A stretch of DNA of 64,000 bases from Candidatus Marinacidobacterales bacterium (GCA_965226495.1 OZ245365.1:2336001-2400000), one strand, 5' to 3'; counted from the first letter of the stretch, positions 4,042-19,765 are shown. Numbers and translations: made by a program. Notes: generated from the sequence alone by a model not told the origin.

Positions 4042-4520
4042 ACACCGCCATTCGAGCCGCGGACCAGAGCGAGCTCTCCGAAGTGCTCGCTCTAGTCAGC
4101 GACTGTGACCTTCCCGTCGACGGTGTCGAGGAGAACCTAGCCGGTTTTCTTGTCGCCCGAGAGAATGAAACGCTGGTCGGAACGATCGGGCTCGAATGCT
4201 ATGGTGAGGTGGGTCTCCTCCGCTCGCTGGCTGTGGCATCGAGCGGACGGGGCCAGGGATTGGGTGGAAGGTTGGTAGAGATGCTACTCGGTCACGCGAA
4301 GGAGCGGGGCGTGACTACGGTCTACTTGTTGACCGAAACGGCGGGAAATTTCTTCCCGCGTTTCGGCTTCAAGAAAATGCCTCGCGTGGAGCTCGACCCT
4401 GCTCTCGACGCTTCTCGGGAACTACAAGGGGTTTGCTCAGAAACCGCTGTGGCCATGCGCTTGAGGCTCGGCCAAGGTCCCTACTCCGTGATCGCCAGTA
4501 AATCCAACAGAAACGTGTAG
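4038..4520 (+). CDS. arsN2: arsenic-resistance GNAT N-acetyltransferase (ArsN2-like)
   Basis: GTG at 4038 overlaps the arsM stop (GTGA); 'GLLRSLAV...RGQGLG...YLLTETA..FF.RFGF...C...AVAM'. Confidence 0.8.
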   Translation: MNTAIRAADQSELSEVLALVSDCDLPVDGVEENLAGFLVARENETLVGTIGLECYGEVGLLRSLAVASSGRGQGLGGRLVEMLLGHAKERGVTTVYLLTETAGNFFPRFGFKKMPRVELDPALDASRELQGVCSETAVAMRLRLGQGPYSVIASKSNRNV

Positions 4521-6580
4521 GCGAGCGCGGTCTCCTGGTGACGCTTGAATCGTCCCGACGGCCCGCCGTGACCGGCGTCCATGTTGGTTTTCAATATCAG
4601 AACGTTGTCATCGGTCTTCAGGGCTCGTAGCTTCGCCACCCACTTTGCGGGCTCCCAGTACTGCACTTGGGAATCGTGGAGCCCGGCGGTGATCAGCAAG
4701 TGTGGGTAATCTTTAGCCTCGACGTTGTCATAGGGCGAGTAGGACAGCATGTAGTCGTAATATTCTTTGTCATTGGGATCGCCCCACTCGTCGTACTCGC
4801 CGGTGGTAAGGGGAATGTCGGGGTCGAGCATCGTTGTAACCACATCGACGAAAGGTACATCCGCGACCACTCCTTCGAAAAGCTCGGGTGCCATGTTTAC
4901 GACCGCACCTATCAGCAGGCCGCCGGCGCTTCCGCCCATCGCGAAAAGCCGGTCTTTACTCGTGTAACCTTCCGCGACCAAATACTCGCCACAGTCGATG
5001 AAGTCGGTGAAAGTGTTTTTCTTCGTGAGAAGCTTGCCATTTTCGTACCATTGACGTCCGAGCTCCTGGCCGCCACGAATATGGGCGATGGCGTAGGCGA
5101 AGCCGCGCTCCAGGAGGCTCAACCGCGACGAGCTGAAGGTGGGGTCCATCGACATGCCATAGGAACCGTACGCGTAGAGGAGTAGCGGCGCGCTCCCGTC
5201 CTTTTTCGTGCCCTTGGGGAAGACGATGGAGATGGGCACCTTCTTGCCGTCTCTCGCCACGGCGTGGAGACGCTCGGTGCGGTAGTCGGTGGAGTCAAAA
5301 TCACCGACCACCTCGTCCTGCTTGAGCAAAATTTTCTCCTTCGTCACCATGTCGTAATCGTAGGTCGACCACGGAGTGGCCATGGATGAATAGCCGTAGC
5401 GTAAGACCCGGCTGCCGAGCTCCCGGTTCGTGCTGGTGTAGGCGAAATAGGCCGGCTCTCCGAAATCCAGGTAGTGTTCATGACTACCGTCCCAAGGAAT
5501 GACGCGGATGTGATTGAGTCCGTCCTCGCGCTCGGTCACCACCAGGAAGTCCTGGAAGAGATCGTAGTCCCTCAAGAATACGTCGGTGCGGTGGGGGATG
5601 ACTTCGCGCCACTTCTTCTTGTCGGTGTTGGCGAGGGCAGTTTCCATGAGCCGGAAGTTCGGTGCTTCCCAGTTGGTTCGGATATAGAACTTGTCGGCCA
5701 GGTGCTCGACGGAATACTCGTGATTCGGCTCCCTCGGTAGGATAACCTTGAACTCACCGGTCGGGTTCGCCGCCTCGAGGTAGCGATACTCGGTGCTGAG
5801 CGTCTGGGAGGTGCCGATAATGAGGTACTTCCGCGACTTGGTCCTCGAGATGAAGCAGCTGAATTCTTCATCGGCTTCCTCGTATACCAAGGCATCTCTG
5901 GTCGGATCGGTGCCTAGGACGTGCCGATAGATTCGATCGGATCGCAGCGTCTCGGGGTCCTGCTTGGTGTAGAAGATCGTCTTGTTATCGTTGGCCCAGG
6001 CGACGTTCCCGGTCACGTCGGGAAGGACGTCGTCGTACATCTCCCCGGTTGTGAGGTTCTTGAAGCGCAGCGTATAGAACCGTCGCCCGACGGTATCGAC
6101 GCTGAAGGCGAGAACGTCCCGGCCCGAGCTCACCGACAGGGTGCCGAGCGAGAAGAAGTCGTGCCCCTGGGCGAGCTCGTTGGCGTTGACCATGATCTGC
6201 TCTGGCGCGTCGAGGGAGTCTTTCTTGCGGCCGTAGATGGCGTATTCCTCGTCTCCTTGATAGCGGTAGTAGTAGTAATAGCCGTCGTACGGGAAGGGGG
6301 CGGACGCGTCGTCTTTCTTGATGCGCCCCTTGATCTCCTCGAAGAGTGCGTCCTGCAGCTTCTCGGTGTGTTTCATAACGCCGTCGAGATAGGCGTTCTC
6401 GGCGGTTAGGTAGTCGATGACTTCTGGGTTTTCCCGCTCCTTCAGCCAGTAGTAGTTGTCGGTTCTCACGTCCCCGTGCATTTCGAGCTGATGGGGGACG
6501 ATCTTGGCTTTGGGAGGCGTGATTGTGTCCTTGGGTTCCACCAGGCTCAAGACTAGCACGGCCATTAGTAGAAGTCGCAA
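4481..6580 (-). CDS. ptrB: oligopeptidase B (S9A peptidase) with signal peptide
   Basis: DNYYWL, GGSAGG nucleophile, DSQVQYWEPAKWVAKLR, AGHGG. Confidence 0.95.
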   Translation of the reverse strand: MRLLLMAVLVLSLVEPKDTITPPKAKIVPHQLEMHGDVRTDNYYWLKERENPEVIDYLTAENAYLDGVMKHTEKLQDALFEEIKGRIKKDDASAPFPYDGYYYYYRYQGDEEYAIYGRKKDSLDAPEQIMVNANELAQGHDFFSLGTLSVSSGRDVLAFSVDTVGRRFYTLRFKNLTTGEMYDDVLPDVTGNVAWANDNKTIFYTKQDPETLRSDRIYRHVLGTDPTRDALVYEEADEEFSCFISRTKSRKYLIIGTSQTLSTEYRYLEAANPTGEFKVILPREPNHEYSVEHLADKFYIRTNWEAPNFRLMETALANTDKKKWREVIPHRTDVFLRDYDLFQDFLVVTEREDGLNHIRVIPWDGSHEHYLDFGEPAYFAYTSTNRELGSRVLRYGYSSMATPWSTYDYDMVTKEKILLKQDEVVGDFDSTDYRTERLHAVARDGKKVPISIVFPKGTKKDGSAPLLLYAYGSYGMSMDPTFSSSRLSLLERGFAYAIAHIRGGQELGRQWYENGKLLTKKNTFTDFIDCGEYLVAEGYTSKDRLFAMGGSAGGLLIGAVVNMAPELFEGVVADVPFVDVVTTMLDPDIPLTTGEYDEWGDPNDKEYYDYMLSYSPYDNVEAKDYPHLLITAGLHDSQVQYWEPAKWVAKLRALKTDDNVLILKTNMDAGHGGPSGRFKRHQETALAYTFLLDLLAITE

Positions 6581-6615
6581 CGAAGTGTCCTCTCTGTACG
6601 TTTAGCGCGATTTCC

Positions 6616-7629
6616 TCAGCGGCGCCAGCTCAGTCCGACGAAAGCCCCTCCGTTGCGGCGGCAAAGCTCTCGCATCAAGGTCGCGAACCGTACACCGGTG
6701 TTCTCCGGAAATCCCGACTGAGAGAACATGACCGGGAAGCCGATACCGTGGATTCGAACCAAGCGATTCCCTTGCGAATCTTCCTTGTTGATGCGATCGA
6801 CGGTCTCGACGACAGCGTCGATAGAGCGTCCGGTGAACTCGTCGCCGAAGACGTAGAGACTAATCTTCTTGTCGGGCGCGGCGTAGCGCCTAATGGCGCG
6901 CGTAATTCCTTCCACCGGGCTGCTGTTGCTGAAGGGAGACCATGTCCGGAGCCGGTCGAGAATCACTTGACGCCTCCCCGGAGTGTCCGGAATCCATCTG
7001 CCAGCGTAGTTGCTGAACATGTGCTGGCCCATGTCGTTCATGACCTGCAGACCCTTCACCTTGGGATAAATGTCGAGCGTCTCTTTCATCTTTCGGTTGA
7101 CCATGGACCAGGCGTAGTTGTGCATGCTGCCCGACGTATCGATGATAAAGATGACGTACTCACTGTCGACGGGTATCCCTCCGACGGTGGCGTCCTTGGG
7201 ATCGCGTCGATGGGCGAGACCGAGAAGCCGTTTCATCTCCTCGTTCAGCTCTTGACGTGCGGCGAGTAGGCGACCCTCCACGATATCGCTGACTTCCGAG
7301 AGCTCCTCGCTGGCCGCGTACTCCCCTCGAATCTTGGAGAAATCACCGCGGAGGCGAGCAATTCGGACGCGCTCCTTGGATACTTGCTCTTCCTTGGAGA
7401 TGAGCTTCCGATTCAGAACGTTCGTCTCGCCGCGGATCTCGTAGAGCTCTTCTTGAAGGCGGGCGACCAGGCCTTCGAGCTCGATCCGTAGCGCCTCGAG
7501 GGCGCGGGGCTCACCGATCTTGGTCAAGACCAACAACAGAATGATGGCGCCGAAGCCGCAGCAAATACAATCCAGGAAGGACAGGCTGAAGCCCGCACTA
7601 TCGCTTCGTCGTTTGGCCCTTCTCTTCAT
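6616..7629 (-). CDS. ExbD/MotB-like TM anchor + coiled coil + VWA domain protein
   Basis: 'SLSFLDCICCGFGAIILLLVL' TM with Asp; coiled coil; MIDAS IIDTSGSM; YVFGDE. Confidence 0.8.
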   Translation of the reverse strand: MKRRAKRRSDSAGFSLSFLDCICCGFGAIILLLVLTKIGEPRALEALRIELEGLVARLQEELYEIRGETNVLNRKLISKEEQVSKERVRIARLRGDFSKIRGEYAASEELSEVSDIVEGRLLAARQELNEEMKRLLGLAHRRDPKDATVGGIPVDSEYVIFIIDTSGSMHNYAWSMVNRKMKETLDIYPKVKGLQVMNDMGQHMFSNYAGRWIPDTPGRRQVILDRLRTWSPFSNSSPVEGITRAIRRYAAPDKKISLYVFGDEFTGRSIDAVVETVDRINKEDSQGNRLVRIHGIGFPVMFSQSGFPENTGVRFATLMRELCRRNGGAFVGLSWRR

Positions 7630-7631
7630 CC

Positions 7632-8723
7632 CTACGGCCAGTTCCGGGAAGGGCTCATGAAGGAGCCTCCGGTTGCGAGAGCGAGCTTCCAGTAGGCACT
7701 AGATGCCATCGGATCGCCCTCCATGGGAAAAAGAATGACGTTCATCGGTACCTTCGATTGAAGCGCCTTCACTGCTTCGTTGAAGAGCTTGATGCGGTCC
7801 TTGCCGGATATCGTGCTGCGCCGGGAGGGTGACCGACCCTGAGTGGGGAGGCCGTCCACGAGCAACATGATGTTGTCGGGCGCGGGTCGCAGCGTTCGGA
7901 TCGATTGAAGCGCTTGATACAGATTCGTTCCCCCCTGCGGCACGACGCTGCGAAGCTGCTGCACCGTTTCGTCGAGCACTTTTCGGTCACCGCCGTCCAG
8001 CCAGTCACCGTCCGTGCCCGGCATCACCGAGCTGACGCTGGTGTTGAAGGTGTAGATCTGAAAGCTCGAGTCCCTGGGGATTTGTGTGGTCAACCAATCG
8101 ACGGTGGCCAGCGTTTGTTGCCACTTGTCGGCGCGGATCTTGACGTGGTCGGGAAGGTTCCGGCGTCGCACTACGTTGACGATCGTCGACGCAAGCATGC
8201 TCGCGGATGCATCGACCAGGAACAGAATCCGGCGGCCTCCGACCTTGAGACCGGTGAGGTATTGCCGGTCTCCGTCCCCGACGAATGTTCGAATTTTGTC
8301 CCCGGGAGTCTCTTCGCTTGGAGCGGCTGCCGACAGTCGCTTGACGTCTTCCTCGAGAGATTTCAAATCCGCCTTCAGACGGTTGATGTGCTCTCGTTGT
8401 GCGACGGTTGAGTCCTGATAGGTGGCAAGTTCGACTCGGATCTCCTCGAGGGTTTCGATGAGGCGCCGGGAAAGTCCGGCGGTGACGACGTTTTCCTCAT
8501 CGATCTCGCGAAGCGAGTTTTTGACCTCGACGAGGTTCTGGTAGCCCTCGAGGACTTCTTCCTCCAATCGGTTGACTTCGCCCTGAAGCTCTCCGGTCAT
8601 GCGTCCCGAGATCCTGCCGAAGCTGGCGGTAACGATCATGAAGAACAGAACCACCGCGCCGAAGCCACAGGTCATGGCGTCCAAGAAGGACAGGCTGAGA
8701 ACGTTGATCCTACGGCGTGCCAT
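7632..8723 (-). CDS. ExbD/MotB-like TM anchor + coiled coil + VWA domain protein (paralogue)
   Basis: 'SLSFLDAMTCGFGAVVLFFMI'; LVDASASM; GGTNL; LLVDGLP. Confidence 0.8.
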   Translation of the reverse strand: MARRRINVLSLSFLDAMTCGFGAVVLFFMIVTASFGRISGRMTGELQGEVNRLEEEVLEGYQNLVEVKNSLREIDEENVVTAGLSRRLIETLEEIRVELATYQDSTVAQREHINRLKADLKSLEEDVKRLSAAAPSEETPGDKIRTFVGDGDRQYLTGLKVGGRRILFLVDASASMLASTIVNVVRRRNLPDHVKIRADKWQQTLATVDWLTTQIPRDSSFQIYTFNTSVSSVMPGTDGDWLDGGDRKVLDETVQQLRSVVPQGGTNLYQALQSIRTLRPAPDNIMLLVDGLPTQGRSPSRRSTISGKDRIKLFNEAVKALQSKVPMNVILFPMEGDPMASSAYWKLALATGGSFMSPSRNWP

Positions 8724-10173
8724 CCGAATCCATCACGGCGATGAGGCGCAGCTCGACGCCGGGAGTGCCGACTCTCAAGCGATCTCCCGCGGCGAGAACC
8801 GCCTTCGTTTCGATCCGTTTTTCGTTGAGAAAGCAACCGTAGCTGCTGTGATCCTCGAGCAAGACTCGATCGTCGAGACGATAGATGCTGCAATGGGAAT
8901 GTGAGATTCCGGCGGTCGATCCGGCTCGCTCTGCCAGGTCAATACCGCGCCTTCCCTCCGGCACCGTCAGTCCTATTACGAAAGGCTCCGACGTGATCGA
9001 GTGGGCGAGTCCTTCATATAGAACGTGTGTCGGTGCTCGCGAGCCTTGAGGGCGGTCCGTGACGACCGGAGCCGGGGGGCCCACGACGTCAGCGCTTCCT
9101 GGAATGGTATCGCTCTGTGTGATGCGGGTGACGAAGGGTAGCTCTTCTCCTGCCTCTCCAGGGTGAGCGGAGCGAAAGTGTTTGACCAACTTCAGGGCAC
9201 CTTTCGCACCGGCCGCGCCGGGGAGAGCCACTAGGTTCTCATTGGCCAGTCTCAAGAACTCCTCTAGCCCGGGAAGCTCGGTCATTCGTTTCGACAAGAG
9301 CAGGGTCGCTTGCTGCCCGGCGGGTTCCAGTGCTTTGGCGAGCCGCGCGAGGGTTTCATAGAGCGGTTGGGCACAGGCCACAATCTGCTCGCGGGTGATT
9401 TCGATTGCGTGATCCTTCCCCGCGGCCTCCATGACGAGAGTGACTCTGTCCTCTCGTTGAAGCTCGTCGAGCCATCCTGGCAGGCGAAGGTAGAGAGCTT
9501 GCTCGCTCTCACCTCGATGAAGGGGGTCGAAACGGGTGGTGCGGACGAAAACTTGAGCAATGAGCCTCACCCAAGCGTCGAACAACGCGACGAGACCGAC
9601 CTCGTCGTTTACCTCGATGCGTGCCCGCTTCACTTCGCCTCTCACTTGTGGGTCGCGCTCGACTCTCGTGGCCACCGTTCGATGCAGGTGAAGATCCAGG
9701 TGAATGGCCACGGGTGTCGGGCTGGACGCCTCGTCGGAGAGCCCGGACAGAGTGGAGGAAGCTACCGAAGAATCGATCATTCCCGTTACAGGCATCCCGC
9801 ACGCGCGGGCGATTCCTAAGACGAGTCCCAACTGTTTCTGCGAAAAACATCCGGGTATTGCCAAAACGACGTCATCGGTTCGTTCCCGAGTGGACTCCCA
9901 AATCTCTTTGAGATGGGCGTGAGCTAGATCGGCGCGCCGAAGGGTTTTGGGAAAAGGCCGAGGGAGGGGTGTCGTATCGAGCTCTTCCCAGAAGCGGTCG
10001 TATGTCCACCGCGGTTTCAGCCGGGCGCGGCTCGCCGCGTTACGTCCGGTGAGGAGGGTTTCTCCGTCCAGGACGACGACACCAGGACTAGGAGAAATGG
10101 CCCCGGTTTCCGGATCGGAATCGCGCACCGCTTCGATGCCGATGTCGTTGAGCTCTATCGCCAAAACACTCAT
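8710..10173 (-). CDS. degenerate Hsp70/actin-like fold + C-terminal FHA domain protein
   Basis: 'VVLAIPGCFSQKQLGLVLGIARACGM' resembles DnaK VITVPAYF..QR; C-terminal 'GISHSHC...LEDHSSYGCFLN...LAAGDRLRVG' is FHA. Confidence 0.7.
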   Translation of the reverse strand: MSVLAIELNDIGIEAVRDSDPETGAISPSPGVVVLDGETLLTGRNAASRARLKPRWTYDRFWEELDTTPLPRPFPKTLRRADLAHAHLKEIWESTRERTDDVVLAIPGCFSQKQLGLVLGIARACGMPVTGMIDSSVASSTLSGLSDEASSPTPVAIHLDLHLHRTVATRVERDPQVRGEVKRARIEVNDEVGLVALFDAWVRLIAQVFVRTTRFDPLHRGESEQALYLRLPGWLDELQREDRVTLVMEAAGKDHAIEITREQIVACAQPLYETLARLAKALEPAGQQATLLLSKRMTELPGLEEFLRLANENLVALPGAAGAKGALKLVKHFRSAHPGEAGEELPFVTRITQSDTIPGSADVVGPPAPVVTDRPQGSRAPTHVLYEGLAHSITSEPFVIGLTVPEGRRGIDLAERAGSTAGISHSHCSIYRLDDRVLLEDHSSYGCFLNEKRIETKAVLAAGDRLRVGTPGVELRLIAVMDSDGTP

Positions 10174-10178
10174 CGCGA

Positions 10179-10976
10179 CTATGAAACTCGAAGATGTTGG
10201 ATGAGGTGTTGGTCAAGGTAGGTCTCGGTGTCGGCTACCAGCCGTTCCTGTTGAAGCTGCAGCTGGTGAAGGAGGAACATGAGCACGATACTGATCAGGA
10301 GCGCGATAAAGGTGGAATTGAAAGCAACACCCAGACTTTGAGTGACGCCCGCGATGTCTCCTTCAACTGCCTTGTGCGCCTGCCCGAGGGCCTCGCCGAT
10401 ACCGCGGACGGTCCCGATGAATCCGATCGAAGGAATGGCCCACGCGATGTAGCGAACCATCGACAGCTCGGAGTCCAATCGCTCCGACTCCGCCTCGGCG
10501 ACGCCGTGAGCGGTCGTAGAGACGTCTTGAATGTTGCGTGTGGCACCGAAGCGGGCCAGCGCCGAGAGCACAGCGCGCGGAAGCAGCAGACGTTGCTGGG
10601 AATCCGGCAGGGCTTGGATCTGACGTGCATACTCGCGCGCATCTTCCGGCAAGATCTTGGTTCCCTCGGCGACGGGAACCAGATCTAGCTCGAGCAGTTT
10701 TTTCTCGCGTGCAGCGTCCGTCGCCTTGTGCGACATGATGGCCATGGCCCATAGCATCAAGACGAAACAAGATTCTTGCTCGAAGTCGCGGATGATCACG
10801 AAGACCGATCGCTCCGGAACATAGTTTTCGCCGGTCTCCATGAGTGCTTGTTGTTCAGCTAGGATGTAATCCGCTCGCGGACGAACAACGAGGACGTAGA
10901 TGGCATGCACGATGATGATGGCGACGATCAAGGACACGGTTTGGAACACGAACTCCACTGGGTATGCTTTCTTCAT
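10179..10976 (-). CDS. MotA/TolQ/ExbB proton-channel family protein
   Basis: 'WAIPSIGFIGTVRGI' and 'LGVAFNSTFIALLISIVL' TM pair, plus two N-terminal TMs. Confidence 0.9.
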   Translation of the reverse strand: MKKAYPVEFVFQTVSLIVAIIIVHAIYVLVVRPRADYILAEQQALMETGENYVPERSVFVIIRDFEQESCFVLMLWAMAIMSHKATDAAREKKLLELDLVPVAEGTKILPEDAREYARQIQALPDSQQRLLLPRAVLSALARFGATRNIQDVSTTAHGVAEAESERLDSELSMVRYIAWAIPSIGFIGTVRGIGEALGQAHKAVEGDIAGVTQSLGVAFNSTFIALLISIVLMFLLHQLQLQQERLVADTETYLDQHLIQHLRVS

Positions 10977-10990
10977 TCGCCAAGCACCTT

Positions 10991-11224
10991 TCAGATGTCT
11001 ACCGGGAACGAGATGGCGCTATCAACGGGAACCTTCTCCGAGGGGGTGAAGGACTCCAGCTCTTCTTCTTGTTGTGCTTTTGTTTTGGAGTCCTTCTCCT
11101 GTGAAGAGGGCTCCTCCGCTTCTTTGCTTTCAGGCGGTTCACTAGGTGGGGGTGACTGTTGGGTTCCCATCACCGCGCCACCCGCGATCGCGGTGGCCAG
11201 GATCGTATAGAGCAAATATCTCAT
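10991..11224 (-). CDS. small exported protein
   Basis: Signal peptide, acidic/Pro linker, C-terminal FTPSEKVPVDSAISFPVDI; GAGG RBS. Confidence 0.75.
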   Translation of the reverse strand: MRYLLYTILATAIAGGAVMGTQQSPPPSEPPESKEAEEPSSQEKDSKTKAQQEEELESFTPSEKVPVDSAISFPVDI

Positions 11225-11244
11225 CGGTCGTTCCTCGTCTTTAA

Positions 11245-11550
11245 TGCATCAGTGCGCGCTCACTCTTCGTTCGCGCGCTTGGCCTCGCTCCTCGCTCGGC
11301 TTCTCGCTGTCGGCCCACTCGGGCCGGGCTCGCTCCGCTCGCGAGGGTGCGGTGAATTTCGTGAGCACCCTCTCGTGCATCAGTGCGCGCTCAGTCATTA
11401 ATTGATGGCGCGGGGCCCCACCCCCACGCCTCATGCTCCGTCGACTGGCGACTGCGCATGGGCTCATGGCTGTCGCTTCCGCGGGGCGCCACCCCCACGG
11501 CTCGTCCCTTCGCCGACAAGCGGCTGCGGGACGGCTGACGGCTCTGCTCG
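11245..11550. repeat. structured intergenic repeat element (MITE/REP-like)
   Basis: 18-bp direct repeat TGCATCAGTGCGCGCTCA (11245-11262, 11376-11393); 20-bp repeat CGCGGGGC(C/G)CCACCCCCACG (11409-11428, 11480-11499); hairpin GAGGGTGC...GCACCCTC. Confidence 0.6.
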
Positions 11551-11557
11551 GCGTGTA

Positions 11558-13975
11558 TCATTCGGCGTATCGGGCTATTCTAAAGCCCAAATCGGGCCGT
11601 GGCTTATTGCCGTAGTCGCGATAGCTGAGCCGCAATTCGGTAACGCTGCCGTCCATCCAGCTCGACCCGCGGATCGCGTAGAGCTCGCCCTCTTTTGGCC
11701 CCAGTGGATCCTTGGCTATTTCGGCTCCGGATGGATAGATGGTGTAATAGTCGTGCATCCACTCCGCAACGTTCCCGCCCAAGTTCAATATTCCTAGCGG
11801 ATTAGGCGGAAAGCCCTCCGCCGGAGCCGTTGCGGGGTAAGAATCGTCGTACTGGGGGAGTGTGGTCGGGACCAAGCCGCGTGCAGACGCGTCGGCATAG
11901 TTGCCGGAGTTGGCGGCCACTGGGAGAGAGTCGCCCCATGGGTACTTTCGTCCCGCTTGACCGTCTGGGTAACGGGCGACGCGAACCCACTCGGCTTCCG
12001 TCGGCAGACGGTAACCCATGGTGGGCGGCACCACTGCGACGAGGCTTCCCCCGCGTGAGTCGTATGCCGGAGGCCACGATTCTTTTTGGCTCAGCCAATT
12101 GCAGTATCGCGCCGCGGCCGACCAGGTGACGCGGACGACGGGATGGTGATCGATATCCAAGTTCAGCCCGGCCACGCGTCCCGAACGATGCTTCGGATCG
12201 AGCTTACGAAACTGTTGGTTGGTCACTTCCTGCACCGCAAGATAATAACGTCGCGACAGCTCGACCTCGCGGAGGGTCTCGTTGGCACGCCGTCCTGGTT
12301 CGCGTCTCGACGCTCCCATGCGGAAACGGGCGGGCTGGATGAGACGTAACTGGTGGCCTTCCGAAGTGGTGATCACAGCCGGCGTCAATGCCGCCTTGGC
12401 TTCTTCGAGCGTTCTCAGGGTTACTTCGATCGATTGTGGAAAGCCTGGCCTTGGTGTGAGCGTGGTGGTAAACGCTTCGTAACCCTCTTTGCGTACTTCG
12501 ATCTGTTGGGGCAGGGCGACGAGGCTTAGTGTTTGGTTAGCCGAGCCTCGCTCCTCGCCATTCACATACAACACCGCATCCGGCGGATCGCTGACCACTT
12601 CCAATTTTCCGAGCAGAGGGGCGAGCTCGATACTCAGGGTTTGCTCACTCCCGGATTCGATTCGCGCTTCCTGTGTCTGCGTTTCGTAGCCAGCTCGGGA
12701 CACTTCGACTTGATGGCCCACTCTCGGCTGCAAGTCGACCGTCAACGGAGTCTCTCCGCTATAGACGCCATCGACTGTCACGGTGGCTCCGGGTGGGTTG
12801 CTCTCGACGGTCAGCAGTCCGTCCGCCACCGTGAGCCGAGCAGTGGGGAGAGTCTGCGCCTCACCCGCGACCACGGCGAGTCCACTTCGATACGGTTTAT
12901 GTCCTTTCAGCATAAGCGTGAAAGTGTGAGCGCCTTCCATGAGATCCGCCGTTAATGGCGTGCTGCCGATCCCCAGGCCGTTGACCTCCACGGTTGCGCC
13001 CGGAGGTTGGGATGTGAACGAGATAGCGCCCCAGCGCGGTTCGAGCACCGCGTCGAGAGTCTCGGTGCTTCCGGCGCCCTCAATGTGCACGCGGGTCAAG
13101 AAGTCTTTGTGGTTTTCGGCGCGGATCAACACTTCGTGCTCGCCAGGGGGAAGCTCTAGTTCCGCGACCGGGGTGACGCCGATCTCCTCGCCGTCTATCG
13201 TTACGACTGCGCCTTCCGATGGCACCGTCGATAACACGAGGACGCCGGGCCGTTTCGTGAGGACGAAGAGCAGGCGTTGGTTCCGCTCATCGGTGACGGT
13301 CACCTCCGTCTCGACCGGTCGATAACCTTCCTTTTCGATGACCACGGTGTGTTTGCCTTGTCGAAGCATGTATCGCCCACCGAGCTCGAGTTTGAAATAG
13401 GTGTTTTGGAAATCGATTTGCGCTTCCCCGGGCTCGGTTTCGACCAGGACCGATCGCGCGGTGAAGACGAAATACGCTGCCGCTGCCAAAAGAGCGAGAG
13501 ACGTCCAGAGAACAACCTCACGGGTGCGGATGGGGGGACGCTCCCGGTGGGTAGGCCCGACGCGGACTGGCTCGAACGCAATCGGTTTGACCGCTGCCCC
13601 GGAGATATCGGACGTCCCGGGCATCCCGGAAGGGGGGTGTTCGGTGGGAGGAAGGACCGGCGGATCGGTTTTCTGCGCCGTCTTCCATTTCTCGACGCGG
13701 AGGCGAATCTGCTCCTCTCCAAACTCGACGCTAACCTGCATCTTCCCGATCCGGACGACATCTCCGTCTCGCAGCCACCGAGATGTTTTCAGTAGCGTGC
13801 TATTGCAAAGGATCGGTAAATCGGAGCTCGCCGGCTGTACGAAGAGCTCTCCGTCGGCGGACCCGATATGGGCGCTGGTCTGGGCTCCGGGACTCCTGGG
13901 AAGCGCGAGCGGAAACTCGTCGGGTCTCACCCGTCGCGTGCCGCTTTCATCAACGAGGTAAACGGGTAGCATCAA
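11558..13975 (-). CDS. FHA-like + TM + PEGA repeats + SUMF1/FGE-sulfatase-like domain protein
   Basis: Repeated 'S.PPGATV.VNG...G.TPL' PEGA units; C-terminal FRMGAS, EVTNQQF, HPVVRVTW..AARYCNWLS, YRLPTEAEW, GNVAEW, GFRIAR. Confidence 0.9.
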   Translation of the reverse strand: MMLPVYLVDESGTRRVRPDEFPLALPRSPGAQTSAHIGSADGELFVQPASSDLPILCNSTLLKTSRWLRDGDVVRIGKMQVSVEFGEEQIRLRVEKWKTAQKTDPPVLPPTEHPPSGMPGTSDISGAAVKPIAFEPVRVGPTHRERPPIRTREVVLWTSLALLAAAAYFVFTARSVLVETEPGEAQIDFQNTYFKLELGGRYMLRQGKHTVVIEKEGYRPVETEVTVTDERNQRLLFVLTKRPGVLVLSTVPSEGAVVTIDGEEIGVTPVAELELPPGEHEVLIRAENHKDFLTRVHIEGAGSTETLDAVLEPRWGAISFTSQPPGATVEVNGLGIGSTPLTADLMEGAHTFTLMLKGHKPYRSGLAVVAGEAQTLPTARLTVADGLLTVESNPPGATVTVDGVYSGETPLTVDLQPRVGHQVEVSRAGYETQTQEARIESGSEQTLSIELAPLLGKLEVVSDPPDAVLYVNGEERGSANQTLSLVALPQQIEVRKEGYEAFTTTLTPRPGFPQSIEVTLRTLEEAKAALTPAVITTSEGHQLRLIQPARFRMGASRREPGRRANETLREVELSRRYYLAVQEVTNQQFRKLDPKHRSGRVAGLNLDIDHHPVVRVTWSAAARYCNWLSQKESWPPAYDSRGGSLVAVVPPTMGYRLPTEAEWVRVARYPDGQAGRKYPWGDSLPVAANSGNYADASARGLVPTTLPQYDDSYPATAPAEGFPPNPLGILNLGGNVAEWMHDYYTIYPSGAEIAKDPLGPKEGELYAIRGSSWMDGSVTELRLSYRDYGNKPRPDLGFRIARYAE

Positions 13976-16353
13976 ATCTCTTCCTCGCAGCGAACGACGA
14001 GTGGGGAAAGTGAGTTGCCGGCTTCGACGACGAGTTTCAGGCGAACATCGCGGTAGCCTGGCCGGCTTCCAACGACCGTGTAGGTGCCCGGACGAAGCTG
14101 GAGGGTATGTTGATCGAACCTACCCAACCGGCCGACTTTGTAGACGACGATTTCGGTTTTATTGTCCGATTGGAGTTGAACGGGAATCAGCGTCGACGCG
14201 TCGCGGATGGTTTTGTCGAGCGTACGTCGTTGTTGTTCGAGGCGCGGCCCCGACGGCTCGATTTGAGATGCGGTCTCGAGAACAGCAGACGCGGTTTGAA
14301 GCACCTTGATGTCAGAAAGGCGCTCGGCATTCTTGATATGGAAATCCAGTTGATCCGAGAGCGCGGCCCGACGGTCGGTCTTCTCCTTGCCCTCTTGAGC
14401 GAATCGAATCGTAGCGTCCAACTCGAGGACCGCGTCGTAGTGCTCGGCCGCCTTGTGCCACTCTTCTCTCGATTCGAGGTCCGCGGCGTTCTCGCGATGG
14501 AGGGCTATTACCTGAAGCCGCAGACCTTCTTCTGCTTGCGCGATCCCTTCTGCAACCTGGGCGGCGGCGCGCGGTTTGATACTGCCGGCTCGCTGGAAGG
14601 CTTCGCGCGCGGCTCGATAGTCTTCACGGTTGATAGCGGAGACACCCTCGGACATAGCCGCACGAAAGGCACCATCGGTCATGGCTCGTTCGACGCGGCC
14701 CAATGCGTCCCTGGCTGACCGCGACGCAGAGTCTAAAGAGAGTCCTTTCTTGTAGCTGTCAGCCGCTTGGTCTAGATCGCCATTCCTTTCGTGCTCCGCA
14801 CCCTGCGCGAGCAATGACACGACTTCATTGGAGACGCCCGCTCGCCTTAGACCGGCGAGCGCGGTTCGATTGTTGGGATCGACCTGCATGGCAAGCTCGA
14901 AGGCGACCCTGGCCGCGCCCGAGTCACCGCTGGCGAGGGCTGTCTGTCCATCGGCCAAGGCTTGACGTAAGACCTCTACGGCTCGAGAGGACAAGGTCTG
15001 AAAGCCGGCGACCGCCTCTTCATAGGCCTCGAGAGCGTGCGCATACTCGCGACCGCGGAGTTGATCGTCACCCCGATCGAGGGCGGCCATCGCGGCGGGG
15101 TATTTTTCGCCGCCCCAAATCGAGACGCTCTTTGCCTGGAGCTCGTCGCGCCACCGGACGGCGGCCTCGCGTGCTTGTTCGGCGAGTGTCTTAAGCTCCG
15201 CTTCCTGTCGCAGATCGGAAACGGCCGAGGGCTGGACGTTCTGAATTCGCTCAGGGGGGGGAAGGGATGACGCCGGTCCGTGGGACGGATCACCCTGCAT
15301 AGACTGCCTGGCCGGCGACCCGCTAGGTGCCCAACGGGGGAGGAAGACGAAGACGGCGATGGTGGCGAGAATGAGGACCCCGAGGGTGGCAATTGTCGTC
15401 CATCCCAAACCGCCGCCGGAGGATACTCTCGATCGAATCGGCGCAGCTCCGGGCGGGGCTGCCGGTTTGATCTTCTCGATGCGCGGCGGTGGCGTGACGT
15501 TTATTTTCGATGGCACTCTCGACGGGACTGCCGGCTTGGCCCTTGGAGAAATTGGCCCGACGACCGACTTCCTGATCGACGCCAGGGTTGCCTTGACCTC
15601 TGCCATATCGTTTGGACGGTCTGCGGGGTCGTCGCTGAATAAGGACGCCAATAGCGACGTGAGCTCCTCCGGCAACTGTGGGTGATCGCTCAAGAGATCA
15701 TAGAGGAGAGCGCCTAACGCATAAATGTCGTCGGCGCGCGTCGGCTCGTCGCCGGCGCGTTGCTGCGGGCTCATGCTGGAAGGCGATCCCCCACCGGAGA
15801 TTTCCGAAGGGGTCGACCGCGAGTCGAGCAACCCGGCGATGCCGAAGTCGAGCAACTGTGGCTCGCCGTGTCGATCCAACAAGACGTTGGCCGCTTTGAG
15901 ATCGCGGTGTACGACGCCTTGCCGGTGCGCGTAATCGAGCGCATGCGTCACCGGTAGCAGTACGTCCAAGATCTCTTCTAAGGGATGACCTCGAAGCTGA
16001 CCAATGTCTTCTCCCTCGACGTATGCCATGGAGATGAAGCGGACGCCTTCTTCGTCGTGCACGTCGTAGACGCGTACGATGTTCGGGTGAACGAGGCCAC
16101 GAGCATTCCGGCACTCGCGTTTGAGAAGCGCTACCCGTTCGTCGGAGTATCCCTGCGCATCATCCGGCGCGAGCACTTTGACGACGACCTGCTCTTCGAG
16201 CTCCTGGTCCTCGACCAGCCAGACTTCGCCCATTCCTCCCTGGCCGAGAGGACGGATTAGGGTAAAGCGTCGGCCGAGTGATTGGCCACGGGCCAGCGCC
16301 GCCATGGAGCTCCGGTCGCGCGCCTCAGGGATTGGATGGCCCCGGCTCGGCAA
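13972..16353 (-). CDS. membrane Ser/Thr protein kinase with extracytoplasmic TPR-like repeats
   Basis: GQGGMGEV, VVK, HRDLKAAN, DFG; TM 'IATLGVLILATIAVFVFL'; helical repeats; start may be ATG 16305. Confidence 0.9.
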   Translation of the reverse strand: MPSRGHPIPEARDRSSMAALARGQSLGRRFTLIRPLGQGGMGEVWLVEDQELEEQVVVKVLAPDDAQGYSDERVALLKRECRNARGLVHPNIVRVYDVHDEEGVRFISMAYVEGEDIGQLRGHPLEEILDVLLPVTHALDYAHRQGVVHRDLKAANVLLDRHGEPQLLDFGIAGLLDSRSTPSEISGGGSPSSMSPQQRAGDEPTRADDIYALGALLYDLLSDHPQLPEELTSLLASLFSDDPADRPNDMAEVKATLASIRKSVVGPISPRAKPAVPSRVPSKINVTPPPRIEKIKPAAPPGAAPIRSRVSSGGGLGWTTIATLGVLILATIAVFVFLPRWAPSGSPARQSMQGDPSHGPASSLPPPERIQNVQPSAVSDLRQEAELKTLAEQAREAAVRWRDELQAKSVSIWGGEKYPAAMAALDRGDDQLRGREYAHALEAYEEAVAGFQTLSSRAVEVLRQALADGQTALASGDSGAARVAFELAMQVDPNNRTALAGLRRAGVSNEVVSLLAQGAEHERNGDLDQAADSYKKGLSLDSASRSARDALGRVERAMTDGAFRAAMSEGVSAINREDYRAAREAFQRAGSIKPRAAAQVAEGIAQAEEGLRLQVIALHRENAADLESREEWHKAAEHYDAVLELDATIRFAQEGKEKTDRRAALSDQLDFHIKNAERLSDIKVLQTASAVLETASQIEPSGPRLEQQRRTLDKTIRDASTLIPVQLQSDNKTEIVVYKVGRLGRFDQHTLQLRPGTYTVVGSRPGYRDVRLKLVVEAGNSLSPLVVRCEEEI

Positions 16354-17551
16354 GCGGTGTCTCGGAGTTGGGATCTATGGGGAGTCCGGTTTCGGAAGCA
16401 AAGATTTTGCGAAGGAGATTACGCCAAGTCGTGTATTGGGTTTCGACGGATCCGGTTAGTCGGGTGACCTCGCCTTCCATATCGATGAGCAGGGGAGCGA
16501 TGTCCGCATCCAAGGAGGCGGCGAGCTCCTTGAGAGCCTCGCGGTGCATCTTGGCTTCTTCCATTTTGGACATCCCGTCGGCCATGACCATCCCGCCGAT
16601 GACGGACACACCGCCCCTTCTGGTGGCGATTCCACCGGCCATGGCTCCAACGCCGGCGAGCATTCTGATCCAGGCTTCTTTCCTCATCCGAGCAAGCCTG
16701 ACCTCTTCTTCGTAGCTGAAGGCTCTCCAGTCGTCATAGGGTGCGTCCATCTTCAAGTAGAAGTTGGCGTAGAACTCGTTCAGCGTGTCGATGAACATGA
16801 AATCCCGCTCGCGAATGTCGTTGACGCGCACCATCATCGGATCGCCGTGCGCCGGGAGCTTCTCGATCGAGTACCGCCCTTTCTTGTCGACTTTCAAATA
16901 TTCCTCGAACGGAGTCGGTGCTAGGTCCACCGCGAACTTGAGCTGTGACAGCAAGCGCACTTGCTGGATGTCTTTTTCGTCGAGCTTCCGTCGCTTCTCG
17001 AGGATATCGTTGGCGATCTCGTTATAAAGAAACTGATAAGGGTCTGGTTGCTCGGCGATACCCCTCTTCTTGGTGTAGGCGCTCACGCTGGCTTCTCGCT
17101 TGTACCGTTTCTTCAACCAACTTTGGCCGCGAGCGTCTAGGACGTGGATCTCGACCTCGAGGTTCTTTCCGTGCGACTTCCGGATGGTGCCGGACACCAT
17201 GACGTCCACCGCGTTCGCGGCGGGGACCACGCGAACCGCGCCCCAGTAACCCGTTGACTGAAGCGTTTGCTTCAACTGGAAGGGGATGTATCGAGCCTCG
17301 GATTTCCTCACGTCCGGAAAGACACCCTTTTCTTCCAAGTCGAAGAGGGCCTCCTCGTCTTCCGGCAAGCCGGGGTCGAACACGTGGATGCCGACGTCAA
17401 GAAGTTGTTCCTCGGGAATCTCGGTTTGCGCTTGGATGAGCTCAACCGGATCCTTGTTGCCGGCGTGTGTAGGCGAGGCGGTCAGGAACCCCAGCGCGAC
17501 AAAAGCCACAGGCACTATCAGTATTCGGGGTATGGAAAGTCGGCTCGGCAT
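16325..17551 (-). CDS. exported hypothetical protein with Gly-rich hydrophobic hairpin
   Basis: Signal peptide ending THA; 'MLAGVGAMAGGIATRRGGVSVIGGMVM' glycine-zipper-like segment; co-oriented in the operon. Confidence 0.75.
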   Translation of the reverse strand: MPSRLSIPRILIVPVAFVALGFLTASPTHAGNKDPVELIQAQTEIPEEQLLDVGIHVFDPGLPEDEEALFDLEEKGVFPDVRKSEARYIPFQLKQTLQSTGYWGAVRVVPAANAVDVMVSGTIRKSHGKNLEVEIHVLDARGQSWLKKRYKREASVSAYTKKRGIAEQPDPYQFLYNEIANDILEKRRKLDEKDIQQVRLLSQLKFAVDLAPTPFEEYLKVDKKGRYSIEKLPAHGDPMMVRVNDIRERDFMFIDTLNEFYANFYLKMDAPYDDWRAFSYEEEVRLARMRKEAWIRMLAGVGAMAGGIATRRGGVSVIGGMVMADGMSKMEEAKMHREALKELAASLDADIAPLLIDMEGEVTRLTGSVETQYTTWRNLLRKIFASETGLPIDPNSETPLAEPGPSNP

Positions 17552-17554
17552 CGT

Positions 17555-18595
17555 TTAGCTCCCTTTCTCGGTGCCTCGCTTATAGGCTCGGTACTCCTCC
17601 CATAGTCTCTCACGAAGTTTCGGGTCGTCTTCTTGCGTGGCCGCTTCGCGCAGCTGCCTGGCTACGATGTCATCGCCGCTACCGTCGCCAACGTCGGGGG
17701 GGACACGACCGTTGTCCGACTCGCCCTCGGCCCCTCCGACGGGAGCGCCTGGAGACGAGTCCACCGGCTCTCCGTCGGGGGCATCCGGTGATCCGCCGGT
17801 GCCACCCGCGATCTGTGTTGCGCGTCGTTCAGCATCGGCACCGTCGGCAGAGTCGGCACCGCCGTCGCCTACTCCACCCGAGGATCCCCCGGCCCCGCTG
17901 TCACCACTCGCCGCCGCGGCTGCTTCTCGCTGCTGCTCCAGGAGCTCTTGTTCGCTCAGGAGCAGCTTGTCGAACTCGCTGAGTGACGAGTCCAAGTCTT
18001 TATCGAGGCCGGCGCGTTTTTCTTCCGTCGTCTTGGGCCCGCCCCCGCCGCCTTTCGAAGCACCGCCGGGTTTGGCGCCCGACGGCGGTGTTCCTCCGGA
18101 AGTCTTTCCCGTCGCACCGGCGTTACCCGATTTACCTGCGCCAGCGGAGCTCGGTTTGGACGCGGTCGCCTCACCCTTGGAGGACTCCCCGGCTCCAGGC
18201 TGCGCCCCGGCTTCGGCGCTCGTTTCGGTCCCGGAGGATGAGCCGTCCTCGCTATCTTCGCCTTTCGCACCGTCTTCACTGGAGCTCGTGCCTCCGGCCT
18301 CCGTTCCTTCTCCCTTTTTCGTTTCGCTTGGGGTCGAAGGTTCGCTCGATGACGGTGTGGAAGGTGGCGTCGTGGATGGTGGCGCCGGCGAAGGTGAAGG
18401 CTTTGAGGGAGGGCTCGGCACCGACGGGGGCGAGGGTAAAGAAGGTACCGAAGGGGTCGATGAACGACTCGAGCATCCCGCCACAACGAAAAGCAGAATG
18501 CCTAAGCCAGCCAGTCTCACGGTCCCGTCAACGCTCTTTGTGACGTTCATTAGATGCACCTTTCCAGTGTGGACGCCCCATCGGAACACCCTCAT
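17555..18595 (-). CDS. low-complexity lipoprotein with folded C-terminal motif
   Basis: Lipobox VVAGC; long P/S/G/E disordered linker; C-terminal 'DDIVARQLREAATQEDDPKLRERLWEEYRAYK'; start uncertain. Confidence 0.7.
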   Translation of the reverse strand: MRVFRWGVHTGKVHLMNVTKSVDGTVRLAGLGILLFVVAGCSSRSSTPSVPSLPSPPSVPSPPSKPSPSPAPPSTTPPSTPSSSEPSTPSETKKGEGTEAGGTSSSEDGAKGEDSEDGSSSGTETSAEAGAQPGAGESSKGEATASKPSSAGAGKSGNAGATGKTSGGTPPSGAKPGGASKGGGGGPKTTEEKRAGLDKDLDSSLSEFDKLLLSEQELLEQQREAAAAASGDSGAGGSSGGVGDGGADSADGADAERRATQIAGGTGGSPDAPDGEPVDSSPGAPVGGAEGESDNGRVPPDVGDGSGDDIVARQLREAATQEDDPKLRERLWEEYRAYKRGTEKGS

Positions 18596-18917
18596 GGTAC
18601 CTCAAAGTGCAAATTCAAGGCCAGTAAGGGGGATCGGTGAGGCGCGGTAGGGGGGGACCCTAATCGATACTTATCTAATACTTTAGGGCTACGGGTCGCC
18701 GCGCCACGACTGCGTGTCAGGGTTCTCCCTCATCGGGATCCAGGACGAGCCGTCCACCCCCGATGACATTACCGCGAAAGCGCGATCCGTGGGCTTTTCA
18801 CCTCTCGCCCGCTGACGATGTATTAAAGCTCGCCTTTGCCTGAGCCGGGCCGACCGTCCATCCCCTCCTCAATGCGAGCATCGAGAAAAGGAGCCGAGTG
18901 ATCTGATGGCGGGCATG

Positions 18918-18946
18918 TTGACACAAAATCTGCCGCGGGGGACACT
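18918..18946 (+). promoter_or_regulatory. sigma70-type promoter
   Basis: TTGACA, 17 bp, GACACT upstream of the AGGAG RBS of the gene at 18980. Confidence 0.5.
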
Positions 18947-18979
18947 ACTTCTTAACCTTCTTATAAGGAGAACAACAGC

Positions 18980-19720
18980 GTGAAGCGCACGGAACGGCAT
19001 CATTTGAAGCAGAACGACCTGCTCCACTGGTTGGAACAATTCGCCGGTTGGGCCGCTGAGAACCGCTCCTCTCTGAAGACCGGGGCCATTGCGGTTCTGC
19101 TTGCGGCCGTCGTAGTTGGAGGCATCTACGTCTATCGCCACGGTCGGGATCAGACGGCAGATACCGCCCTCAGCGAAGCACTGGAGGTCTACCACGGGGT
19201 GGTGCGCGAGAACACGATCATCTCGGGACCCGACGCGGGACCGACCTTCAACAGCCAGGAGGAACGCTACATTGCGGCGCTCGAAGCGCTCGAGGAGGTC
19301 GAGCAGAAGTACACTGCCATCAAGCAAGGAAGGGAAGCGCGCTACTACATGGCACTTTCGAAGGCAGGGCTTGGCGAGCTCGAGGAGTCGGAAGGGCTCT
19401 TGGAACACGTCGTCGACAAGCGAGGAGATCTACTTTATTACCTCGCGTCTCAGACTCTGGCTACGGTGAAGGCGGATCGGGGGGATCACGCGGCTGCGGC
19501 AGAGGTGTATCGGACACTCGTGGACGATGCGAAGGGGCCGCTTCCGAAAGACCAACTCCTGTTCCGGATGGCAGAGCAGTTGGAAGCGGACGGCAAACTG
19601 CAGGAAGCGCGACAGGCTTATGAACGGTTTCTCGAAGAGTATCCGACATCTTCGCTTCGCAGCCAGGCGGAACAGAAAAGCGAGCTCCTGGAGTTTCGGT
19701 TGAATGGCTCTCCCGCATAG
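18980..19720 (+). CDS. membrane-anchored TPR protein (YfgM-like)
   Basis: 'MKRTERHHLKQND', single TM, TPR helices, 'EEYPTS'. Confidence 0.8.
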   Translation: MKRTERHHLKQNDLLHWLEQFAGWAAENRSSLKTGAIAVLLAAVVVGGIYVYRHGRDQTADTALSEALEVYHGVVRENTIISGPDAGPTFNSQEERYIAALEALEEVEQKYTAIKQGREARYYMALSKAGLGELEESEGLLEHVVDKRGDLLYYLASQTLATVKADRGDHAAAAEVYRTLVDDAKGPLPKDQLLFRMAEQLEADGKLQEARQAYERFLEEYPTSSLRSQAEQKSELLEFRLNGSPA

Positions 19721-19765
19721 CCTGCCTGTAATAGTCAAGACTGCCAAGACTGTCACGAGGGAATA

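Follow-up and report, generated by a model that had tools for sequence, protein, structure and literature searches.

A conserved nine-gene cluster in a Candidatus Marinacidobacterales bacterium predicted to encode an envelope-spanning machine with a TolQ-like channel and vWA-headed inner subunits

Motor genes of the cluster

The cluster analyzed here occupies positions 6616-18595 of a 64,000-nucleotide stretch, hereafter the window, of the genome of a Candidatus Marinacidobacterales bacterium (GCA_965226495.1, OZ245365.1:2336001-2400000), referred to below as the host. From the sequence alone, an original prediction had described nine co-oriented, mostly abutting genes and had assigned domains to their products. 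The nine open reading frames (ORFs), named g1 to g9 in order of transcription, all lie on the minus strand, are intact without internal stops, and encode the domains that had been named, so that this observation was confirmed, while its interpretation as an uncharacterized, phosphorylation-gated motor system was partly supported. The cluster is present as a single copy in the host genome. We consider it probable that its products assemble into a machine that spans the envelope and has a 5:2-type motor, driven by protons (or other ions), as its core.

The g6 gene (10179-10976) encodes a channel subunit of the TolQ/ExbB/MotA family, 265 aa in length (PF01618 MotA_ExbB, Pfam E-value 8.2e-14). When a profile of 42 orthologues was compared with solved structures, TolQ alone matched (8odt, E 0.005). 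In the ungapped alignment, TolQ T145 and T178, which we take to be the functional pore threonines of TolQ, corresponded to g6 T189 and T222, both of which were invariant in 42/42 orthologues. The protein was 57-94% identical between phyla and formed a discrete subfamily, with 302 representatives at E ≤ 1e-30 and 3663 at E ≤ 1e-3 among 1.84 billion. Thousands of close relatives were found in metagenomes, where 8000/8000 scored candidates passed and the best 120 were 77-98% identical.

The products of g8 (7632-8723) and g9 (6616-7629) are paralogues, and both begin with an Arg-rich tail followed by a helix of the 'LSFLD...CGFGA' type, which leads into a coiled coil and a vWA head. In g8, hydropathy placed the transmembrane (TM) helix at residues 13-31, SMC-type coiled-coil matches covered residues 45-136 (a coiled coil of about 95 residues), and the head matched VWA_3 (Pfam, 2.7e-7). 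D15, located in the TM helix, and D171, S173, S175, T266, and D290, forming a complete metal ion-dependent adhesion site (MIDAS), were invariant in 40/40 orthologues. No Pfam match was obtained for g9 by itself, and its relationship with g8 was established by hhalign over residues 8-269, which include the TM helix, the coil, and the vWA domain (probability 99.6%, E 3e-24); the two proteins are 26% identical. Its TM helix was placed at residues 18-36 by hydropathy, and D20 in this helix, together with D164, S166, and S168 (the DxSxS motif of the head) and D263, was invariant in 39/39 orthologues. The TM helices of g8 and g9 contain no His residue, i.e., no SHLS/His motif. On these residues and domains, g6 looks like the pentameric channel, and g8 and g9 like the two Asp-bearing inner subunits, of a 5:2 ion motor. 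The pairing of a MotA-like channel with two Asp-bearing subunits, already proposed for this locus, was therefore upheld by the invariant Asp and Thr residues and by the gene context of g6.

The host genome contains three PF01618 genes, of which g6 is the only one without an adjoining ExbD gene, and the three ExbD matches of the genome all lie beside the other two. Since each of these two sits in an ExbD-bearing set, g6 belongs to a third, separate motor. One of the sets, at 2416277-2419960 of the host genome and about 70 kb from g6, comprises PF01618, ExbD, TonB_C-like, and OmpA matches side by side, and, from this domain content, looks like the host's own Tol-Pal cluster. The second set (4777194-4779056) comprises PF01618, two ExbD, and TonB_C matches. 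None of the 3 ExbD (PF02472), 18 TonB_C (PF03544), 9 OmpA (PF00691), and 21 TonB-dependent-receptor matches of the genome falls in the window, and the sole PADLOC match to Zorya proteins was to ZorA, at 15.8 bits. These results agree with the earlier statement that no TonB, TonB-dependent receptor, flagellar, or zorC/D gene is nearby. One of the receptor matches elsewhere in the host genome (3579544-3580839, minus strand) contains one in-frame TGA, and may be a pseudogene or reflect a sequencing error.

Partner genes and their junctions

The small gene g5 (10991-11224) is the most sharply defined element of the cluster. It encodes a secreted protein made of a signal peptide, a low-complexity acidic/Pro-rich linker, and a C-terminal peptide with the motif F-x-P-[ST]-E-...-F-P-x-D-I-COOH. 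An ORF of this type, ending in (F/L)PxDI, was found between g4 and g6 in all 62 loci that hold both genes, and, in the 37 of these that were aligned, F59, P61, E63, F73, P74, D76, and the C-terminal I77 were invariant.

The product of the first gene, g1 (17555-18595), is a lipoprotein whose lipobox reads VVAGC. It has a long low-complexity linker rich in Ser, Pro, Gly, and Ala, and was assigned to no family by Pfam, NCBIfam, or PADLOC. Conservation was restricted to its last ~50 residues (about 294-345), which were 53-81% identical between phyla and matched only unnamed clusters in the ESM Atlas. The exported g2 protein (16325-17551), for which no Pfam family was found, combines an alpha/beta domain of the PelC/TolB-N/FlgT/LptE type with a Gly-rich segment and a long helical hairpin. 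Across 42 orthologues, the consensus has 'GC' after the signal sequence, and a lipobox is present in most of them. In the AlphaFold 2 (AF2) model (pLDDT 83, pTM 0.81), residues ~42-190 gave VIA-align Z-scores modestly above background with the LPHT ring chain (9.5), TolB-N (9.1), PelC (9.0), and the CsgG complex (8.2), and Foldseek matches were weak (E 9e-5 and worse). The nearest ESM Atlas clusters carry the automatic label 'DUF2884 family' and share no common Pfam family, which provides a lead only. Hydropathy indicated a single N-terminal hydrophobic segment in each of g1 (residues 24-42), g2, g8, and g9, and a single internal TM segment in each of g3 and g4.

The g3 gene (13972-16353) encodes a Hanks-type Ser/Thr kinase (Pkinase 2.2e-31, Pfam) with intact HRDLKAAN and DFG motifs, followed by a TM segment (320-338), a periplasmic TPR region (TPR_2, 5.2e-10), and a C-terminal beta domain. 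In the g4 protein (11558-13975), an N-terminal region, FHA-like by profile comparison only (hhalign with the g7 FHA, probability 65.6%, E 5.8e-5), precedes a TM segment (154-172), five PEGA stretches (2.3e-60, Pfam), and a C-terminal domain of the FGE/SUMF1 fold (FGE-sulfatase 2.8e-37). The protein is anchored by the TM segment and has no lipobox. Its C-terminal domain matched human FGE (2.3e-17) and PorK (5e-10) among PDB structures. FGE depends on a catalytic cysteine pair. In g4, the FGE 'GGSYMC' segment aligns with 'GSSWMD', the C-terminal stretch 'SSWMDGSVTELRLSYRDY...' is free of Cys, and no Cys is found in the last 35 residues, so that the domain has the FGE fold without the cysteine pair and is predicted to be non-catalytic.

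The g7 gene (8710-10173) encodes a cytoplasmic protein with an Hsp70 nucleotide-binding domain (NBD) fold from residue 1 to ~345, a linker, and a C-terminal FHA domain (~385-480; Pfam 2.1e-9). Its AF2 model (pLDDT 92) was matched by Foldseek to the NBDs of Ssz1, DnaK, and Hsp70 (E 1e-16 to 3e-18; target-normalized TM-score ~0.7), and a PDB profile search retrieved the SSB1 NBD (2.4e-5) and an Rv0020c-type FHA domain (1.1e-6). The NBD fold is thus shared with Hsp70 chaperones, but their Gly-rich phosphate-2 loop is degenerate ('DLGGGTFD' aligns with 'LDLHLHRAV'), and an FHA domain stands where the chaperones have the substrate-binding domain. The loss of the Gly-rich phosphate loop makes canonical ATP hydrolysis by g7 doubtful.

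We also modeled a complex of the g4 SUMF1 domain and the g8 and g9 heads, with g5 residues 25-77 as the partner chain. Three runs scored 0.77, 0.68, and 0.69, and two partner-replaced controls scored 0.00, but a control in which SUMF1 had been replaced scored 0.66. The score was thus not specific to the chosen chains and constitutes no evidence for or against binding.

Most junctions of the cluster are tight, with gaps of 3 nt (g1/g2), 14 nt (g5/g6), 5 nt (g6/g7), and 2 nt (g8/g9), and overlaps of 29 nt (g2/g3, with the listed TTG start of g3), 4 nt (g3/g4), and 14 nt (g7/g8). The tight g6/g7, g7/g8, and g8/g9 junctions fit with a stoichiometric complex. The sole exception is the 333-nt g4/g5 gap (11225-11557), which contains short GC-rich direct repeats, namely two copies of a 24-nt GC-rich repeat (D1, 11409-11432 and 11480-11503) and two copies of a 21-nt repeat (D2, 11245-11265 and 11376-11396). 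The repeat motif occurs only twice in the whole window. In most other lineages, the g4-g6 interval measures 160-300 nt and is mostly taken up by the g5 ORF. An Rfam scan of 4000-21000, this gap included, gave no match at E ≤ 0.1, and the site scan found no promoter- or terminator-like site inside the gap. Over the region, one promoter-like site was counted for 2.4 expected and 12 terminator-like sites for 11.6 expected; these counts are at chance level and do not define operon boundaries. The g4/g5 gap may separate two transcription units in the host lineage. No RNA data set with the locus was listed, and its DNA was matched in 20 rows from 8 studies.

Conservation, distribution, and the kinase

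A pattern scan with one genome per species returned at least 592 loci, of which the best 80 were kept; 46 of these had enough flanking sequence for whole-cluster counts. Loci L006, L007, and L009 duplicate L019, L025, and L045 and were not counted. The periplasmic part of g3, g4, g6, the NBD part of g7, g8, and g9 were present in 46/46 well-flanked loci, g2 in 43, and g1 in 39. All eight searched genes were found together in 39/46 loci, in an identical order in 39/39, and g6 to g9 occurred together in 69/69 loci long enough to contain all four. The recurrence of the same genes, in the same order, in several phyla shows a clustering far beyond chance, and bears out the expectation that the synteny would be conserved in other genomes.

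The carriers among the best 80 of at least 592 loci belong to the Acidobacteriota, the Gammaproteobacteria (Pseudomonadota), and the Desulfobacterales (Thermodesulfobacteriota), with single bins labelled Polyangiaceae (Myxococcota), Gemmatimonadetes (Gemmatimonadota), and Thermodesulfovibrionia (Nitrospirota). A FastTree tree of g6, g8, and g9 (72 rows; L065 and L062, in which g9 is cut by the contig end, were left out) required 8 changes of phylum label, compared with 29.4 when the labels were shuffled. Since the tree largely tracks the phylum labels, descent seems to have been mainly vertical, apart from a small number of ancient transfers or of contigs assigned to the wrong bin.

Within the host phylum, g6 was detected in 5 of 151 sampled genomes, host included, and all nine genes were syntenic in the four other carriers. 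In the host order, two families carried it in 5/7 and 16/17 genomes, respectively, and a third in 0/16. The genomes of the g6-less family are 2.7-4.2 Mb in size and 89-95% complete, and those of its sister family (16/17) are 2.8-10 Mb, mostly at least 5 Mb; the system may have been shed along with genome reduction in the former.

The original prediction also held that the motor is gated by phosphorylation. Kinase and FHA domains were scored by tblastn at E ≤ 1e-3, a criterion under which diverged FHA domains can escape detection. On this basis, the g3 kinase domain was detected in 33 of 58 loci long enough to include it and is therefore accessory. All 33 kinase-bearing loci had the g7 FHA domain and 31 had that of g4, whereas, among the 25 kinase-less loci, these domains were detected in 16 and 15, respectively. 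These raw counts are striking, but the kinase state changes at least nine times on the tree, and, in seven independent pairs differing in kinase state, the g7 FHA changed in the same way in ~1.4 and was unchanged in 5.6 (p = 1). Co-variation of the kinase with the FHA domains was thus rejected as evidence. The kinase appears as a labile add-on, and gating of the motor is not demonstrated by these data. Kinase gating is plausible for the host locus, where the HRD/DFG kinase is intact and both FHA domains are present, and, with the kinase absent from 25 of 58 loci and the pairs non-significant, it is not general to the system. Three minimal variants (L008, L040, and L059) carry a g3 orthologue without kinase and keep all motor genes, neither FHA domain being detected; their g7 orthologue is short in L008 and L040 (338-345 aa) compared with L059 (453 aa).

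Relation to described systems and proposed function

The motor core is not undescribed, as TolQ-like pentamers around paired Asp-bearing vWA proteins have already been predicted (PMC12204202; Mol Biol Evol 2025;42:msaf138). Section 8 of that paper defines a 'second family' of TM-tethered vWA genes, 'TPH-vWA', which lie in close linkage with tolQ homologues that have no tolR/exbD and usually come as heterologous pairs (PMC12204202). Their trans-pore helix (TPH) has a conserved Asp, which AlphaFold 3 (AF3) placed inside the Thr ring of a TolQ-like pentamer, and they were reported mainly in Proteobacteria and Verrucomicrobia (PMC12204202). The host locus shares the tolQ-like gene without tolR/exbD, the two adjoining heterologous membrane-anchored vWA genes, the Asp of the trans-pore helix, the channel Thr ring, and the absence of an SHLS/His motif; by this gene arrangement and these residues, we assign it to the TPH-vWA family. 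The seed of the published family comes from Idiomarina, a genus with no record among the best 80 loci of our scan. It differs by six further conserved genes and by Acidobacteriota carriers, neither of which appears in the main text of the paper, where the words kinase, Hsp70, DnaK, PEGA, sulfatase, and Acidobacter are all absent. A literature search for the arrangement found no other paper, and the term 'TPH-vWA' was used in that one alone; an eLife 2020 paper (PMC7159879) and a Ferrigenium preprint were considered and proved irrelevant. The earlier claim of an uncharacterized, distinct system must consequently be narrowed: the motor core had been predicted, but this covers three of the nine genes, and the cluster does not map one-to-one onto a characterized system.

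Few kinds of 5:2 ion-driven motors have been characterized (flagellar stators, Ton, Tol, type IX/gliding, Agl, and Zorya), and each of them drives a major envelope function. The closest comparison is with Tol-Pal. Among solved structures, g6 has TolQ as its sole relative and keeps the pore threonines, the g2 alpha/beta domain resembles the TolB N-domain (Z 9.1), and the machine encoded here is probably, like Tol-Pal, a proton-powered link from the inner membrane to the outer envelope. In contrast to Tol-Pal, the cluster has no TolR, TolA, TolB beta-propeller, or Pal, and its inner subunits form a putative vWA-headed heterodimer. Neither the ExbD/TolR partner nor the TolA/TonB transducer of the Tol-Pal and Ton systems was found in the window, both being encoded elsewhere in the genome. 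Flagellar MotAB differs in turn, as the window contains no OmpA-domain match and the Asp-bearing partners of g6 end in vWA.

In the machine that we propose, which agrees with the model reached independently with AF3 in PMC12204202, the inner membrane would contain a ring of five TolQ-like g6 copies enclosing a single copy each of g8 and g9. The latter two would replace TolR/ExbD/MotB, with the N-terminal helix and its ion-binding Asp entering the g6 threonine ring, and with a coiled-coil stalk of ~90-95 residues leading, on the periplasmic side, to a metal-dependent vWA head. This heterodimeric axle could be turned or pulled by the flow of ions, allowing the heads to exert force on a periplasmic or outer-membrane ligand. 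Candidate partners are g5 with its invariant, acidic C-terminal peptide, the ring-former-like g2, the lipoprotein g1, g4, and the periplasmic TPR part of g3. The g4 protein would be an inner-membrane protein whose five PEGA domains act as a rod bearing the non-catalytic SUMF1 domain, and would form, with g3, a scaffold and sensor. On the cytoplasmic side of the motor, g7, with its Hsp70 nucleotide-binding fold devoid of the glycine phosphate loop, probably docks as an adaptor, and, in the host lineage, the FHA domains of g7 and g4 may read phospho-threonine generated by the g3 kinase, thus tuning motor activity. Our observations comprise the domain content, the conservation of the Asp, Thr, and MIDAS residues, the missing ExbD partner, and the synteny, and we infer from them the 5:2 assembly, the binding contacts, and the cellular role. 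By analogy with Tol-Pal, our best guess for the latter is outer-membrane or peptidoglycan tethering and envelope maintenance.

Several points weigh against this proposal. TPH-vWA is itself a prediction, for which PMC12204202 gives no phenotypes. As its best match among solved motors is TolQ at E 0.005, g6 is far from all of them. The system is dispensable, as judged from the 5 carriers among 151 genomes of the phylum and from the 0/16 versus 16/17 genomes in two families of the order. Finally, the phospho-control part is weak: the kinase is absent from 25 of 58 loci, 16 of these keep an FHA domain, the independent pairs gave p = 1, and no phosphatase was seen among the immediate neighbours of the cluster.

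Other functions were considered for the same proteins. In type VI secretion, damage to the envelope is detected by the TagQRST-PpkA-Fha1 pathway, and PpkA, PppA, Fha1, and TagR constitute a threonine-phosphorylation set. The parts of the cluster resemble those of this pathway, with a Hanks kinase bearing a periplasmic sensor, FHA readers (two such domains here), a non-catalytic SUMF1-fold periplasmic protein, lipoproteins, and a vWA domain, and g7, without the Hsp70 Gly loop, is more adaptor-like than enzyme-like. It could be imagined from this resemblance that g6/g8/g9 act as an ion-gated or mechanosensitive envelope sensor with an output via g7 and the FHA/kinase proteins, i.e., as a signalling device and not a force generator. 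We regard this as unlikely, since the kinase is absent from 25 of 58 loci while the motor genes are always retained, the motor residues are invariant between phyla, which fits ion-coupled work, and domain scans found no output domain (transcription factor or cyclase) among the cluster proteins. The cluster differs from the type VI pathway in that no tss genes or PP2C phosphatase were found among the host neighbours examined, and in that the vWA domains are carried by the motor subunits and not by the kinase.

The g4 protein raises another possibility, namely that the motor serves a surface-motility, adhesion, or secretion apparatus like Agl-Glt or type IX PorKLMN, with the SUMF1 domain in the role of PorK/GldK. 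A SUMF1 protein, a channel, and periplasm-spanning TM proteins echo the gldK-L-M order, PorKLMN/GldKLMN likewise places a SUMF1-fold protein by a motor of the 5:2 type, with two inner subunits that reach across the periplasm, and the g4 C-terminal domain matched the PorK structures and the GldK model (TIGR03525, 2.3e-24). However, the score with the latter was 86.5 bits for a cut-off of 350, g4 is anchored by a TM segment and not by a lipid, the periplasmic parts of the host motor are coiled coil plus vWA, and none of the ten proteins scanned, those of the cluster included, matched GldL, GldM, or GldN at E ≤ 0.01, g6 being PF01618. Agl-Glt, as far as the available portion of PMC11761067 describes it, also combines a TolQ/R-type motor with TPR proteins, lipoproteins, a vWA protein used as an adhesin, and GltG, an FHA-TM helix protein with a long periplasmic extension (compare g4) that is predicted to bind the AglR pentamer. 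In that same portion, by contrast, the vWA protein CglB is an outer-membrane adhesin and not a motor inner subunit, AglQ/S are ordinary TolR-like proteins, and there is no mention of an Hsp70-like partner, of a PEGA/SUMF1 protein, or of a peptide like that of g5 (PMC11761067). With no outer-membrane barrel, secretin, or adhesin gene conserved beside the cluster, a role in motility or secretion seems rather improbable to us. The weakest of the rival readings is a Zorya-type anti-phage defence in which the MotA-like motor would sense envelope perturbation, and we consider it very improbable. It draws on the use of a MotA-family channel outside flagella, on the weak ZorA match of g6 (E 1.3e-3), on matches of the kinase to defence-system kinase models, and on the patchy distribution within the phylum. 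Against it, g6 has just 265 aa and ZorA a long tail, no ZorB, ZorC, ZorD, ZorE, nuclease, or other effector was found in the cluster scans, and, the 15.8-bit ZorA match apart, PADLOC gave only generic kinase and coiled-coil matches. In addition, the tree largely follows the phyla, and, unlike typical defence islands, the cluster is near-universal in two families of the order and is neighboured by housekeeping genes.

Returning to the envelope-spanning motor, a more complete version of it is offered tentatively and judged less likely than not: the nine genes could encode one complete, undescribed trans-envelope machine, a fourth functional 5:2 class beside flagella, Tol/Ton, and type IX/gliding. 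The two MIDAS heads of a proton-driven (g6)5(g8/g9) rotor would grip and pull the g5 peptide or an outer-membrane ring of g2/g1, the g4 SUMF1-on-PEGA rod and the g3 TPR part would provide the scaffold, and g7 would act as a pseudo-ATPase and phospho-threonine-controlled clutch on the cytoplasmic face. Of interest at this locus are the putative axle subunits that bear adhesion-type vWA heads, together with a fixed set of six partner genes across several diderm phyla. The g5 peptide protein, the SUMF1/PEGA protein g4, the ring-former-like g2, and the Hsp70-fold/FHA protein g7 offer handles on the target of the motor. Should its function resemble that of Tol-Pal, the system would provide an additional and optional means of envelope maintenance, the second of its kind. 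It is frequent in soil and sediment Acidobacteriota, Gammaproteobacteria, and Desulfobacterales.

Lastly, the genes flanking the cluster were inspected. Upstream of g1 and divergent from it, 18980-21511 (plus strand) encodes a TPR_21 (YfgM-like) protein and an S49 signal-peptide peptidase (SppA-like), a pair that was not conserved alongside the cluster in the other loci. On the other side, a gene for an S9 prolyl oligopeptidase (4481-6580, minus strand; Peptidase_S9_N 6.7e-112) lies on the same strand, 35 nt past g9. As this neighbour was kept solely in the two closest relatives (L010 and L011, 86-87% identity), it is not part of the system, but it may be co-transcribed with the cluster in the host lineage only.

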